This document shows, one piece after another, positions 3,885-19,595 of a stretch of 46,740 nt of DNA; the first letter of the stretch is position 1, and every line of letters starts with the position of its first letter. Source of the stretch: an uncultured archaeon. Its GTDB lineage: Archaea > Asgardarchaeota > Lokiarchaeia > Sigyniarchaeales > SOKP01. The notes beneath the pieces were generated by a model. The model was not told the DNA's origin. It was given only the letters and a program-made list of their open reading frames with translations, and did no database searches. The position numbers and the translations under genes are program-made. The stretch covers positions 1 through 46,740 of the forward strand of contig CAZALK010000013.1 in NCBI GenBank assembly GCA_964486045.1, written 5' to 3'.

Positions 3885-5516
3885 GTGATTTTTATGAATA
3901 GGGATGATTTTACAAGAAAAACTAAGGAAACAGTCGCAAAAAGAGCCGCGTATTTTTGTACTAATCCCAAATGCAATAAATTATGTATTGGTCCAGCTGA
4001 ACAAAATTTTGATGATGTCAATTATTATGGTAAAGTTGCTCATATAACTGCTGCAGCGGAAGGAGGTCCTAGGTATGATAAAAATCTAGCTTCAGATCAG
4101 AGGAAATCTGCCAAGAATGCAATATTCTTATGTTCAAATTGTGCAGATATGATTGATAAGAATGAAGGAATTGATTTTCCCAAGGAAAAACTCCTTCAGT
4201 GGAAAAAGATTCATGAAGAGAGAATTAAAAAAGGGGAATTTTCATTAATCAATGATGAATTAGGATATAAGAAAGAAATTCAGGATTTATTCGAATTTTT
4301 ATATACTTTCATTGAAAATGTATTCAATGGATACAGATTAGATTATATAACGGTTAATGATAATATTTTAGAAATAAAAGAAAAAAGAGGGAAATTTAGA
4401 AGATATTTTGGCATGATTTTCAGTCCTCTTGAATTGGATGAAGAATTCCCATATCCTATTGAATGCAAAATCAGATTCTTAGAAAGCGAATATGAATTGT
4501 CTTTTTATGCCGATCCTCAAGAGAGACACTTTTTCGATATGGGTGGAGATTTGCAAATCTCTTATAGAAATGAGAATAATGATAGTGAAACATGGAGTAA
4601 TGTAGAAAATGAAAATCCCAGAGAAGTTTTGGATAAGATTTGGCAAGATATCAAATTAAATGTTGAAGAAAAATTCAATTTCACTTTAAAAATCCCAAAT
4701 ATTCAATTACTTTCTGTTTTAAGTGAGAAAGTGGACAAAATTGAAGAATTATGGAGGAATATTATGAATAATTTGCAAAAAATAAAAACTGAATCTCAAA
4801 AAAATAAATTTCAAAATGCTTTTGATACAATTGAACTGTATATTGAACGATATCCTCACATCATTAAAAAGATAGAAATTCGATATGGAGTTAATATCAG
4901 GTTCAACAAGGAGAAAATGGTTATAATCATTTCGGATAAAGAAGATCCAAATTATATCAAGTTAAAGCTCAGAAGAAGAGACTGGACTGATTCTTTTGGC
5001 AAGTATAAAGAGGATAATTTTTATTTTAGAGAGATTATCAAAAAACCTCCATATAATAATGAGTGGCATAGAAAAAATAAAGTCATGAAGGAGCTTTTAG
5101 AACAATTGTTCAAAATTCCCAATGAAGATTTAAATGAAATAAAATCTAGCGAAAAAGAGTTTTGCATTATGAAAATTTGGTCGGAAAGGTGGAATGGAAT
5201 AATTGATATGTCAGCTGGAAGAGATGGAAGGAATTGGGATGAATACCGTATAAAATGGACAGAAACTGGGTGGTATATTGAACATATCGCCATTAACGGT
5301 GAGTGCGATAAAACTGGTGAGCCTTTTTTATATCAAAACCTTAGACAAGATTTTATCTCATATCCCAGTGATTTACCGAATATGATGAGATCATTATGGT
5401 ACACCTTCTATGAAGAAAATCTATCGCAAGAGCAGTTACAAATTAAAATAAATGAAATTTCAGAGCGAATTAATATATGTGAAAAGAATAAAGCACGAAC
5501 AAATCCTAATTATTAA
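3885..5516 (+). CDS. HNH endonuclease fused to a C-terminal VCH_CASS14-like (integron cassette protein) domain
   Basis: N-terminal CTNPKC..AHITAAAEGGPRYD..NAIFLCSNC HNH; C-terminal YRIKWTETGWYIEHIAINGECDKTGEPFLYQNLRQDFISYP resembles VCH_CASS14 (recalled). Confidence 0.75.
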   Translation: MIFMNRDDFTRKTKETVAKRAAYFCTNPKCNKLCIGPAEQNFDDVNYYGKVAHITAAAEGGPRYDKNLASDQRKSAKNAIFLCSNCADMIDKNEGIDFPKEKLLQWKKIHEERIKKGEFSLINDELGYKKEIQDLFEFLYTFIENVFNGYRLDYITVNDNILEIKEKRGKFRRYFGMIFSPLELDEEFPYPIECKIRFLESEYELSFYADPQERHFFDMGGDLQISYRNENNDSETWSNVENENPREVLDKIWQDIKLNVEEKFNFTLKIPNIQLLSVLSEKVDKIEELWRNIMNNLQKIKTESQKNKFQNAFDTIELYIERYPHIIKKIEIRYGVNIRFNKEKMVIIISDKEDPNYIKLKLRRRDWTDSFGKYKEDNFYFREIIKKPPYNNEWHRKNKVMKELLEQLFKIPNEDLNEIKSSEKEFCIMKIWSERWNGIIDMSAGRDGRNWDEYRIKWTETGWYIEHIAINGECDKTGEPFLYQNLRQDFISYPSDLPNMMRSLWYTFYEENLSQEQLQIKINEISERINICEKNKARTNPNY

Positions 5517-5564
5517 TACTAACTATCTTAAACTCCGAACAAAAGTAGGAGGAAAATCTTTTTC

Positions 5565-5594
5565 AGGAGGGGGCACCACGGGGGAGGGAGGTAA
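5565..5594 (+). repeat. 30-bp G-rich motif, copy 1
   Basis: AGGAGGGGGCACCACGGGGGAGGGAGGTAA, identical to 8029-8058. Confidence 0.9.
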
Positions 5595-7880: not shown

Positions 7881-8028
7881 AAATAAAAGGGTATTATTGA
7901 TTCACTATAAAATTAATTATTTTGTTATAATTTTTTTTATCTTTTTAAGAGAAAAAATTTATCCAATTTCTTGATTCAAACAAGATAAATCACTTTCTTG
8001 ACTAATTCAGTTTCCCCCCTACTTCTTT

Positions 8029-8058
8029 AGGAGGGGGCACCACGGGGGAGGGAGGTAA
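8029..8058 (+). repeat. 30-bp G-rich motif, copy 2
   Basis: Identical to 5565-5594. Confidence 0.9.
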
Positions 8059-8101: not shown

Positions 8102-8701
8102 TTATATATCAATATCAAAATCAGCTATAATTTTTGGATAGGCATTCATTAAAATTTCACTGTCACAGTGTCCACCATATTGATACAGAATATCTAAAAA
8201 AATATTCTGATCTTTTTTTTTAATCCCCATATCAGCCAGGATCTGTTTAGACAACTTTAAAGTAGTTTCACATTGATCAGAAACTTTTTTCAATTTTTTT
8301 AAGAATTCAATTACCTGATCTTCAGTAAGAGGATATTTGGGTTCCCAGGCTTCTTGAAGGTTTTTTGGGATTTTGTTTTCATAACAATCGATGCAAAACC
8401 ATTCTTTCGGTCTTGTAGCATAAACCATATCCTTATCCATTTTTCTACACACACCACAAATGCAAATGGATTTTTCAAACGTTCTACTTAATTGTTGAAT
8501 TTTGGATTCAAGTTCTTTTGTTGCTTCAATCGCAGATTTAATAGACTTTCCTTTTTCTATGAATTTCTTTCTTATTTCTCGTTTTTCTTTTAACAATTTG
8601 TCATTTATCTCAAAATATGCTTCCGCGATAACCGTTCTTAAACTGTATCTTACATTTTTCAGCTTTGAATTCTTAATAATAACTCTTTTGTGTTTCTTCA
8701 A
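8102..8701 (-). CDS. zinc-finger plus DUF2695-like domain protein
   Basis: CGVC..CIDC; C-terminal YGGHCDSEILMNA. Confidence 0.65.
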   Translation of the reverse strand: MKKHKRVIIKNSKLKNVRYSLRTVIAEAYFEINDKLLKEKREIRKKFIEKGKSIKSAIEATKELESKIQQLSRTFEKSICICGVCRKMDKDMVYATRPKEWFCIDCYENKIPKNLQEAWEPKYPLTEDQVIEFLKKLKKVSDQCETTLKLSKQILADMGIKKKDQNIFLDILYQYGGHCDSEILMNAYPKIIADFDIDI

Positions 8702-8739: not shown

Positions 8740-10611
8740 CTATGGCATTGATCCTAAATATCGCATAATTTCATGGTTATTATGATGAGCTATAATTCTT
8801 TCTAATCCTCTATTCATAATAGTTTTAAAAGATAAAGATGTTTTACTGGTAAAAAATCTACTGTAAAGACTATTCTTATTATCTCCTACTTCTTCTGAAT
8901 AATATGCCTCAATAAACATCTCTTCAATCTTACTTGGATTCCCCGAAAAAATTTCGTTTAAATCTTGTAATAAATTTTTCCTTTCATTAAACCTATTTAA
9001 ATTTACTCTAAAATCAGCGCTTTCGACATTCCAATAATTAAAAATCCAATGATTCTCTCCAAATACACTTAAAATCCTTTCAGAAGTAATGTCACCTTCT
9101 ATCTCGATTAATTGCTGAAATTTGACCAATAAATCTTGCATTTTCGCTTCACTTTGTTCTGACATAAATGCTTCATAATCATGGTGTAATCTATCATCAG
9201 TGATTATCATATCTTTAACTCGCATTGATTGTTTCCGTATCCATGCTTTTAGATTTCGGAAATGATGTCTAATAAAAGTTGGTTGTCCGTTTTTAATCTC
9301 TGCTTTTGTTGCAGAAAATATTTTCCCATCCAAAGGTGCAAAATGTAAGATATCAAATCCTAAGTTTCGTACAATCATCTTCACAAGATGATAAGCCATT
9401 ACACTATCGCTATAAAAAGCTTTAGGATACACGTTTCCATCAACACGAATCTTTCGTGTTTTTCCATAATCTCTAATTTGTTTAATTGTCTTTTGATATA
9501 TGTGTCTATTCTGTCTGTTGTTTGCTGTAAATTTTTGTAAAGCAATGATAAAAGCATCTAAAGTATTAGAATCAATATCGGAAGTTCCTTCTGTAAGATA
9601 TGATTTTAGAGTGCGCTTTGTGCCCAAATATTTTTTAAAAAAGTTATGGGGTAGATGATCCTCTATAAGGTCCATAGCAAGTTCCAGAGTAATTTTTCCG
9701 TCAAATTCTCCTTCATAAGCTGTCTTCGCATAAACAGCTACACAGAACCAAATATTTTTAATAAGATCATATTCAAGTCTAAGAAAGTCTTTAGTCTTAA
9801 CCTCTCCATCTCCTCTGATTGGATTTTCTGTTATGAATCCATTTTCAAAGACATAATCTGTTATAACGTCTCTTATTTGAGATAATTTTATATTGTCTTT
9901 AATATTGGCTTCAGAATAATAGAGAAGCTCAAGGATAACGTTTAGGTCTTTTGGATAATTCGTTAAATCTTGAACAAAGTCCTTTCCTACTTTTAGTCTT
10001 CTTTGCAGAAATTCTCCTATCTTTTGAATATCTATATCAGTACCCTTAGATTTTGGATTTACTATTCGATATAATTCAGCAAAAAATTTGATTTGGTTTG
10101 TAGTAAATGATCCTGCTCCAGCTTGTTCATCCATCACAGTTATGACATCAGAAGATCTAAGGTTAAGTTCCGCGATTTGTGTGAAGTCAGATAATACTTT
10201 ACCATTAGCAATGAATTTTATGTCTAAAATCGGATTGAGATTGTATTCATTCTTTATAATACTTTTAAGATCTTTTACGGTAGATTTTGAATTTTCAATA
10301 ACAATTGATCTTATAGCTTGAGCAACAGGTACACCAGTAAGTCTGAATTTTTTCACTAAATTTCCTAGTAAATCAGACTTTGAATTGACCTTTCCTACCA
10401 ATTTTTTAGAAACCCAAAGTTTTGCCTTTACTAATACATCTTTCAATCTATTTTTAAGACTCCCATCGATTTCGGCTTTTAGATGTTTAACATTAATGTC
10501 GTTGGAAGATTGTAGGACATTATCCTTAACAATTCCTTTTTGAAATTCAAGACTATTGCTAACTGACTGTATAGCACTAAATCCGCAAGCAAGAGAGGCA
10601 CCGAAGAACAT
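8740..10611 (-). CDS. toxin-like protein with an internal ubiquitin-like domain (aa ~86-167) and a possible HNH-like C-terminal region; likely 5'-truncated
   Basis: TVKDLKSIIKNEYNLNPILDIKFIANGKVLSD...DVITVMDEQAGAG; RHH...DDRLHH motif; frame stays open upstream to about 10749 through a Gly-rich hydrophobic segment with no ATG. Confidence 0.7.
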   Translation of the reverse strand: MFFGASLACGFSAIQSVSNSLEFQKGIVKDNVLQSSNDINVKHLKAEIDGSLKNRLKDVLVKAKLWVSKKLVGKVNSKSDLLGNLVKKFRLTGVPVAQAIRSIVIENSKSTVKDLKSIIKNEYNLNPILDIKFIANGKVLSDFTQIAELNLRSSDVITVMDEQAGAGSFTTNQIKFFAELYRIVNPKSKGTDIDIQKIGEFLQRRLKVGKDFVQDLTNYPKDLNVILELLYYSEANIKDNIKLSQIRDVITDYVFENGFITENPIRGDGEVKTKDFLRLEYDLIKNIWFCVAVYAKTAYEGEFDGKITLELAMDLIEDHLPHNFFKKYLGTKRTLKSYLTEGTSDIDSNTLDAFIIALQKFTANNRQNRHIYQKTIKQIRDYGKTRKIRVDGNVYPKAFYSDSVMAYHLVKMIVRNLGFDILHFAPLDGKIFSATKAEIKNGQPTFIRHHFRNLKAWIRKQSMRVKDMIITDDRLHHDYEAFMSEQSEAKMQDLLVKFQQLIEIEGDITSERILSVFGENHWIFNYWNVESADFRVNLNRFNERKNLLQDLNEIFSGNPSKIEEMFIEAYYSEEVGDNKNSLYSRFFTSKTSLSFKTIMNRGLERIIAHHNNHEIMRYLGSMP

Positions 10612-11489
10612 AGGTCCGCCAATGCCGATGAGTACAGTTCCAAGTAAAAGGGAGGCTCCGGTCTTAATAATTGAACTCCATTGAGGTTTAGCTGTTATAC
10701 CTAACTTTTGTTTACTAGTTCTTAATTCTTTGTTCTTGAAATCAAGATTCTACGATCATTTTAATAAATCAAAAAATTGTATTTTTAATTATAGTTGTAA
10801 ATTCGGGTATAATCAAATTTTTGATTAGTTTCTTTTTCACTCGGTGTACTGTAGAACTCTGTGTTCCAGCTATTTCCCACACATCGCAATTAGAGTAATG
10901 GATTCATTAATGACAAAAATATCTTGATTGACAAAAATTCCTAATTGAACTGAAATCCAATTTTTTGTTTAAATATAGAGAGTTTACTTATGGTTCAATT
11001 CGATCCAAAAGGTTGGGTGGTTTTTTTAAAATGTGTGTTTATGAAGCTTTAATGAAAAAAATCAGTGAATTGCGATTGCAAGTTTATTCTGAAAAAGTAG
11101 AAGAGCAAAATCAAGGTCAAAATTGCTTGGAAAATCAGCAGCGCTTAGATGACTTAAGAAACTTCAACAAACACATTCACATTCCTGATTCCAAATTTAA
11201 GTTTAGCAAAAGAGATTTCAGCAACTTCTTTCGTGATAAAAACTGCTATAGTGCAATTTTAGCACATAATTTTATCTGGAGTAATGGCAAAATGCATCAA
11301 TCTCCCTTAATTATATTATCTATATGCACTATTGATGCTAATGTGTTGAATACAATAATTCAGAGAAATATAATTTTTACAATCCCCAATATATGTTTTT
11401 TCTCTTTCAAGTTCAATTATCTTTAATTTTGCTTTACATCTTGGGCATTTCGCTTCTTCTAAAACCATTTTAATAATTCTTTTCTTAAA

Positions 11490-19176: not shown

Positions 19177-19201
19177 GGGACACCACGGGAGAGGGAGATA
19201 A
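19177..19201 (+). repeat. G-rich motif, diverged copy 3
   Basis: GGGACACCACGGGAGAGGGAGATAA. Confidence 0.7.
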
Positions 19202-19595
19202 ATTAATTTAAAGAAGTTATTCAACTAAAAACCAATTGAGTAAATCATACCGTATAACTTTCAGTCCAAATTTTGTATCTTCCTTTATGATTGCACTATT
19301 TAATATATCTTCATCAAAAAGAAAAATACTTTATATAATTCTATGCGCTAAATTTAAAAAAGCAGGCTATAAGTTTCAAATAAGTGGGAAAATTGCACTT
19401 CCTCCCATAACTATTGCTTGCTTTACGGGGGATATCTTATAGGGTGAAAGAAATAAAAAGTATAAAATTCTTATACTAAGAAAATAATTCTTCAGATCAG
19501 CATTTTAAATGGGTTTACACCTATTTCAAGTAATAAATTTTATTAGAATAGGTTATTATTAATTAATAATATGCTCAGAAATGTAAAAAAGAAAT

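Follow-up and report, generated by a model that had tools for sequence, protein, structure and literature searches.

The stretch of DNA analysed here (hereafter the window) comprises positions 1 to 46,740 of contig CAZALK010000013.1, from an uncultured Lokiarchaeial archaeon (assembly GCA_964486045.1). A minus-strand frame of 669 codons, open from stop to stop at 10749-8743, encodes, in this order, a glycine-rich hydrophobic segment at amino acids (aa) 31-56 (10659-10582), a ubiquitin-like domain (Ubl) at aa 132-213, and a 456-aa remainder carrying His495-His496 and His522; a gene for a zinc-finger/DUF2695 protein lies directly downstream. These parts had been recognized in an initial annotation of the sequence, and all were present where it placed them. 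That annotation drew a complete gene, but the frame is better described as truncated at its 5' end. Its first ATG, at 10611, lies within the hydrophobic segment; upstream of it only ATA, ATT or ATC codons are available as candidate starts, and an ATG at 10758, near the frame start, is out of frame. When all frames were checked, neither an in-frame continuation nor frameshifted sequence of the giant proteins described below was found upstream of 10750. Because the first ATG sits in the hydrophobic segment and nothing upstream extends the homology, the architecture is read as that of a headless cassette rather than of a complete gene. The ratio of nonsynonymous to synonymous substitution rates (dN/dS) pointed to purifying selection on all cassette segments. 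In the following, G000 designates the source genome, C its contigs and L the loci compared.

The source genome encodes four giant paralogues that contain, close to their C-terminus, a block matching cassette residues 8-95, with 43-57% amino acid identity and, for the DNA of the block, 78-82% identity over ca. 100-120 bp. The four paralogues are open frames of 9,498, 9,447, 5,235 and 2,010 codons, located at or near contig ends, that are mutually 72-88% identical over thousands of residues and wholly divergent past the block. Of 400 genomes of the phylum searched with a profile of the block, 39 gave a match, in frames of up to 14,833 aa, and 35 of the 39 belonged to other members of the same family; 17 metagenome loci matched as well. 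Giants of the family measure ca. 5,000-15,000 aa, full-length members 9,000-15,000 aa, and consist of a long stalk, the hydrophobic block and highly variable tails of 450-1000 aa, each tail being followed by a partner gene of its own. A Pfam scan of the body of the 9,498-aa giant gave zero matches. Hydropathy alone was used to survey the N-termini of five complete giants, which displayed clusters of two to six hydrophobic helices, suggesting that the giants are probably membrane-anchored and displayed outward; the block is probably part of their membrane-crossing region. Past the block, 54 tails showed a mean column identity of 9%, and a Pfam scan of these tails matched GIY-YIG, HNH_3, LAGLIDADG and PD-(D/E)xK nuclease models. 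Thus the homologues combine a constant body with variable C-terminal toxin domains, the arrangement by which polymorphic toxins are recognized.

Cassettes consisting of a tip and an immunity gene, detached from any giant, were found at the window locus, at C3:57089-59038 and C6:234700-232940 of the source genome, and at L076, L089-L091 and L094. The C3 orphan has a GIY-YIG-like tip, and the tip of the C6 orphan is a distant paralogue of the one in the window. Sequence comparison identifies the window frame as an orphan C-terminal tip cassette of a family of giant, probably surface-displayed proteins, whose block probably serves as a homology arm for tip swapping. The earlier proposal of a polymorphic-toxin-like effector was therefore sustained for the layout, with its variable nuclease tips, and abandoned for the idea of a free-standing effector. 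Likewise, C-termini do vary as had been anticipated, but the constant element that precedes them is the hydrophobic block; a Ubl is present in about one fifth of the tails.

The tip was examined for a nuclease fold. A search of 1.8 billion representatives returned 64 relatives of aa 400-669. In a 48-row alignment of tips, His495 was kept in 48 rows, His496 and His522 in 47 each, Ser508 in 44 and Asp513 in 41. An AlphaFold2 model based on the alignment, with a predicted local distance difference test score (pLDDT) of 87.6, placed the conserved histidines on a finger of two strands and one helix. HNH-bearing chains, as judged from entry names, filled the first 18 rows of the VIA structural search and accounted for 24 of all 35; they included Cap5, Cas9, McrA, PtuB/retron, IscB, phage HNH and EndoVII. 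The best fold match was Cap5 (Z 5.3, root-mean-square deviation 3.5, 98 aligned), and six of ten rows in a structure search of the Atlas were HNH families. Foldseek against the PDB gave no match at E at most 0.001, and an ESM Atlas feature search with the tip returned only rows below 0.8. Since the fold matches, weak as they are, agree and the histidines are conserved, the model supports assignment of the tip to the HNH / His-Me finger nucleases. The HNH-like histidine motif noted initially is thus upheld, with the fold found in the model and in the VIA and Atlas searches and missed by Foldseek against the PDB and by Pfam.

Tips of the window type were present in 46 of 135 family genomes, both as orphans and at the end of giants of 11,241-14,833 aa, and were accompanied by a ubiquitin-type Ubl, by a ThiS-type Ubl or by none. 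The helical middle region was 84% identical in L021 (aa 214-399) and 60% identical in L022 (aa 290-399), with dN/dS of ca. 0.2. These two closest homologous cassettes contain one in-frame stop each (L021:1844-1846 and L022:1931-1933), as expected of decaying reserve cassettes, or of assembly errors. Relatives of the tip in L092 and L093 (genomes G012 and G018) are ATG-started genes of ca. 550 aa that lie beside ribosomal protein genes, together with a zinc-finger partner and a helix-turn-helix gene.

The embedded Ubl scored 26.3 bits against Pfam ubiquitin (cut-off 25.4, E 6.3e-6), compared to 35.5 bits for the free Ubl of the source genome, bearing out the ubiquitin-like domain predicted at 10356-10111. 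The resemblance to stand-alone Lokiarchaeial Ubls was also confirmed: 38 of 80 residues (48%) are identical to the source genome's stand-alone Ubl ending Gln-Ala-Gly-Gly, and a profile of stand-alone Ubls matched the window domain at 2e-22, while reversed tails gave no matches. Matches were obtained in 54 of 61 related genomes, and the majority of these matches were close relatives of the free Ubl. At the DNA level, the window Ubl was 69% identical to the stand-alone gene over 162 bp, and it starts precisely where a 50-bp match to L029 ends, with L029 running on into unrelated sequence. Because of this sharp mosaic joint and the DNA match to the free gene, the Ubl is read as a captured host gene, derived from the conserved Lokiarchaeial free Ubl, in agreement with the capture first proposed. 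The donor type, a free Ubl ending Gly-Gly, is encoded at C10:126155-126442 without E1, E2 or JAMM neighbours. A different Ubl, ending Ala-Gly, belongs to an operon at C5:172904-177218 that also encodes E1, E2, JAMM and a membrane RING-like protein.

Among 58 tails of the family, 12 carried a Ubl between block and nuclease, nine of the ubiquitin type and three of the ThiS type, with a ThiS match above the Pfam cut-off in L081. Beyond these 58 tails, L021 combines a ubiquitin-type Ubl with a window-type tip; in L022 the same type of tip follows a domain that is ThiS-like by profile, has no Pfam match and ends in Gly-Gly. A tree of embedded and free Ubls did not separate one from several captures of the ubiquitin type; capture of the ThiS type must have been a separate event. 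Longer proteins containing the window Ubl region were sought without success, which is weak evidence. Instances were also noted in the source genome, of which those at C10 and C3 likewise add to the 58 tails. The 9,498-aa giant at C7:1-28494 (L023, L087, L088) carries a divergent ubiquitin-type Ubl with intact Gly-Gly and a canonical HNH tip, followed by a leucine-rich repeat (LRR) gene; among natural tails, that of this Ubl would be the most suitable positive control in a cleavage assay. A more distant giant of 3,382 aa at C10:198077-187932 (L127) has a very divergent Ubl ending Gln-Ala-Gly-Ala, a weak profile match (E 0.049), after which ca. 1,350 aa and an LRR gene follow. At C3:224065-223208 (L129) the frame ends just past a ThiS-like domain, without nuclease, and is followed by a gene for a zinc-finger partner, possibly representing a cassette with a lost tip. 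Elsewhere, L095:777-1943 (G049:C630) encodes a 389-aa protein with a C-terminal Lokiarchaeial Ubl whose tail is Ser-Ala-Gly-Cys, directly upstream of an E2-like gene.

Gly211-Ala212 of the window lies in register with the Gly-Gly of the free Ubl, so that the domain does not end in Gly-Gly. When 11 embedded ubiquitin-type domains were aligned blind, the tail Gln was kept in nine and a penultimate Gly or Ala in ten, and the last Gly in one; over the whole domain, mean column identity to the free Ubl was 29% (n = 11). The Caldiarchaeum enzyme CsRpn11 cuts linear ubiquitin fusions (PMC6043591). In that study, replacement of the last Gly with Ala was tolerated, Ala in the penultimate place slowed cleavage, and Val or Glu in the last place prevented it. 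By analogy with these rules, the Gly-Ala tails of the window, L047 and the C10 giant and the Gly-Gly tails of the C7 giant and L022 would be cleavable, and Ala-Ala tails doubtful. Six JAMM-like proteins with an HSH/HTH motif are encoded in the source genome, and local enzymes may tolerate Ala because the operon-linked Ubl of this genome ends Ala-Gly. By this analogy, the altered di-Gly does not exclude cleavage. A cleavage motif of Gly-Gly or small residues shared by all tails was also sought and rejected, as 40 linkers without a Ubl did not score above shuffles; Gly-Ala-Ala-Val after Gly-Gln did occur in six of these 40, a pattern picked after inspection among related linkers.

The product of the downstream gene, located where an immunity gene would be expected, matched DUF2695 (E 4e-7), and its family contains four invariant cysteines in the zinc finger. 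A gene of this family was next after a window-type tip at 29 of 34 loci, namely 11 of the 12 first loci, 17 of 21 that were not used to seed the profile, and the C6 pair of the source genome; after other tips it was found at one of ca. 47. More generally, similar tips were accompanied by similar downstream genes in 61 pairs, whereas 5000 permutations over 56 loci gave 14 on average and never more than 32; kin among these loci are not independent. A model of the complex between tip and partner reached an interaction prediction score from aligned errors (ipSAE) of 0.64, versus 0.00 for the best of three controls, and passed the mark set for such models, which 58 of 80 solved pairs and 2 of 110 mismatched ones reached. 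Contact agreement between runs was at least 88% and partner pLDDT at least 80. The modelled interface joins aa 577-619 of the tip to residues 26-58 of the partner, away from the active site. The model supports binding of the partner to the tip, and the gene product is probably a cognate immunity protein, as first proposed from gene order. About ten further copies of the zinc-finger family occur in the source genome, mostly without a tip, as expected of orphan immunity genes. An ESM Atlas feature search with the partner gave only rows below 0.8. At L023, L040, L043, L044, L048, L053, L055, L063, L077 and others, the tip was followed by an LRR-type gene of Lokiarchaeial type, which suggests that part of the Lokiarchaeial LRR expansion serves as immunity proteins.

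Coordinates of the cassette, its partner gene and adjacent features in the window.
Feature	Coordinates	Strand	Remarks
Conserved pre-tip block, aa 14-75, with Gly-rich hydrophobic helix pair, aa 31-56	10525..10710	-	Common to giants
First in-frame ATG	10609..10611	-	Inside hydrophobic segment; 623-aa product without export signals
Mosaic joint, 50 bp	10344..10393	-	92% DNA identity to L029, 83% to L089
Embedded Ubl (beta-grasp), aa 132-213	10111..10356	-	Pfam PF00240; tail Gln209-Ala-Gly-Ala212, then Gly213
Helical middle region of tip, aa 214-430	9460..10110	-	No Pfam match
Predicted HNH / His-Me finger (beta-beta-alpha)	9172..9276	-	Strands 492-496 and 514-518; helix 522-526
C-terminal helices, aa 577-619, predicted partner-binding	8893..9021	-	Complex model interface
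Probable cognate immunity gene	8102..8701	-	Coiled-coil hairpin, CxxC/CxxC zinc finger and C-terminal DUF2695
GC-rich intergenic repeat, 37 bp	8022..8058	not assigned (.)	Downstream of tip-partner pair

Orphan genes of conflict type are frequent across the window. A second DUF2695-like region lies at ca. 1980-2210 within 1500-2396, and 3885-5516 is a gene for a 543-aa protein with an HNH-like N-terminus. A GC-rich intergenic repeat of 30-40 bp, present in ca. ten copies in the genome, occurs in the window at 8022-8058, 5558-5594 and 19177-19204 and was also observed close to L021, L029, L077, L089 and L090; it may mark cargo boundaries. A promoter scan with a sigma-70 model, unsuited to archaea, gave hits at chance level only. 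Single-sequence AlphaFold of the whole frame reached a pLDDT of 33 and yielded no usable model, the Ubl part included.

Combined, these results make it likely that the locus represents an orphaned part of a polymorphic toxin system of Lokiarchaeia, a cassette with a functional Ubl that faces the ubiquitin machinery. The cassette and toxin-immunity part of this reading is the firmer one and is held with high confidence. The cassette would be a silent or weakly expressed reserve that can recombine within the conserved block and so take the place of a giant's tip. When cells meet, the hydrophobic helices would bring the tail into a neighbouring cell, where the Ubl would be read by the neighbour's own ubiquitin machinery. 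A JAMM/Rpn11 protease might then cut after Gly-Ala212 to free a nuclease of ca. 457 aa, whose HNH domain would cut nucleic acid, and kin would be protected by the zinc-finger protein bound to helices 577-619. That a JAMM protease of the target cell frees the nuclease is the preferred reading of the Ubl, though a tentative one. Equally tentative is the broader scenario of contact-dependent warfare, in which tips of Lokiarchaeial giant toxins may repeatedly have captured host tags of the ubiquitin-like and ThiS/SAMP-like kinds, leaving it to JAMM deubiquitinases of the victim, or to its unfoldases that read ubiquitin, to set the nuclease free.

Several observations weigh against this reading. 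The giants of the source genome run off contig ends, the nearest one lies on another contig, recombination into giants was not observed, and DNA identity along the arm is just ca. 80% over ca. 110 bp. For the tip, the 48-row alignment shows no conserved Asn of H-N-H between the strands, each fold score is weak (Z at most 5.3), and the tip alignment had no HNH match among Pfam and PDB sequences. Roughly four in five tails lack a Ubl, and the window-type tip usually comes without one, so the domain is not needed for release. Where a Ubl is present, Gly-Gly was kept in only one of 11 ubiquitin-type and one of five ThiS-type embedded tails. The nearest homologue, L021, has a Gly-Glu tail, which by the CsRpn11 rules would not be cleavable, and other tails are Ala-Lys, Gly-Asn and Ala-Ser.

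Loss of the last Gly from 14 of 16 embedded Ubls, with the fold core kept, is also what would be seen if the domain were an uncut handle, comparable to the UBL of Rad23 or Get5, that engages the Cdc48/PAN unfoldase, the proteasome or UEV-ESCRT of the target to pull the tip across the membrane, or a decoy that distracts ubiquitin-binding proteins. The best PDB sequence matches of the Ubl family are indeed non-conjugated UBL domains (Get5/Mdy2, Rad23), and two-hybrid tests have shown binding of Asgard ubiquitin to UEV proteins (PMC9192718). We nevertheless consider such a role rather unlikely. Among the best-kept columns are those of the tail Gln and the small penultimate residue, although both positions lie outside the folded core. 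One receptor would not serve both the ThiS-type and the ubiquitin-type fold, yet a small-residue tail is common to the two. The Ubl could instead be a passenger, one of the host gene fragments caught in a hypervariable linker by illegitimate recombination and acting as a stable spacer only. The sharp junction at 10344-10393, the majority of tails without a Ubl, and the drift of embedded copies to 18-46% identity, when free family members are at least 60% alike, all fit this idea. It appears improbable, as two unrelated beta-grasp classes recur at one position in several genera, the Pfam scan of the 54 tails reveals no further recurrent host domain, and dN/dS of the window Ubl against L021 is 0.19, like the rest of the cassette.

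The third alternative would dispense with contact killing altogether: the locus would be a self-contained intracellular toxin-antitoxin (addiction) module, or a selfish nuclease, derived from a giant's tip and starting at ATG 10611, with the Ubl as a possible degron or stability switch. An intact frame of 623 codons behind an AT-rich, TATA-like region, the apparently complete, ATG-started ca. 550-aa genes with zinc-finger partner at L092 and L093, and tip classes that are also those of homing endonucleases speak for it. Homology to the giants, however, starts ca. 35 codons before the ATG and is conserved in frame, and an orphan tip-immunity pair with a homology arm is the standard reserve form of polymorphic toxin systems (PMC3482391). 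We regard this possibility as the least probable of the three.

The Lokiarchaeial family resembles bacterial polymorphic toxins (CdiA-CT/CdiI, Rhs, MafB; Zhang et al. 2012, PMC3482391) in its long stalk, constant pre-toxin region and variable nuclease tips, and in having toxin-immunity gene order and orphan tip-immunity cassettes with a homology arm. Unlike them it is archaeal, has a predicted N-terminal multi-pass membrane anchor and a stalk without Pfam match, shows no Hint, Rhs, VENN or PT-TG processing module, and carries captured host Ubls before the tip. That paper calls polymorphic toxin systems rare in archaea and, in the passages covered, mentions Ubls only as JAB substrates; in the literature covered, the zinc-finger/DUF2695 partner is not among the immunity families described. 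The window tip shares with HNH nucleases (Cap5 7rwk, Cas9 HNH 7mpz, McrA 6ghc, phage GVE2 HNH 5h0o) the beta-beta-alpha core and conserved histidines, but differs by an identity of 16% or less and by an extra helical subdomain predicted to bind the partner.

Eukaryotic fusions of ubiquitin to ribosomal proteins are linear ubiquitin fusions cut by Rpn11/JAMM-type proteases. The linear precursor CsUb-pre of Caldiarchaeum (PMC6043591), likewise cut by Rpn11/JAMM, resembles the window frame in having a ubiquitin fold followed by in-frame cargo and a JAMM in the host. By contrast, the window Ubl is internal to a toxin tail, has Gly-Ala instead of Gly-Gly, and derives from a stand-alone Ubl outside the E1/E2/JAMM operon.

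Asgard archaea have the most proteins of more than 10,000 aa among archaea (10.1101/2023.11.21.568195), and surveys list their giant proteins as uncharacterised. A literature search retrieved no account of Asgard polymorphic or giant toxins, or of Ubls embedded before a tip; a 2019 mBio paper on archaeal polymorphic toxins (Makarova et al.) was outside its coverage. Polymorphic toxins are already known as a kind, and the Asgard giant version with embedded Ubl, on which we found no paper, is apparently undescribed. The locus ties the unexplained Asgard giants to toxin-immunity logic and adds a new family of HNH tips and a probable new immunity family, giving a role to DUF2695-linked zinc fingers. 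The cassette is small, probably soluble and amenable to in vitro work without culture of the host, and, if the proposed mechanism is true, it would provide a function-linked assay for the uncharacterised, near-universal Lokiarchaeial Ubl. It also exemplifies how, in the prokaryotes most closely related to eukaryotes, ubiquitin-fold domains are reused within toxins. Should release by a JAMM protease or entry guided by the Ubl prove true, ubiquitin machinery would be exploited in cell-cell conflict outside eukaryotes, in an archaeon-against-archaeon hijack of the ubiquitin system that would restrict killing to cells with matching Ubl machinery.

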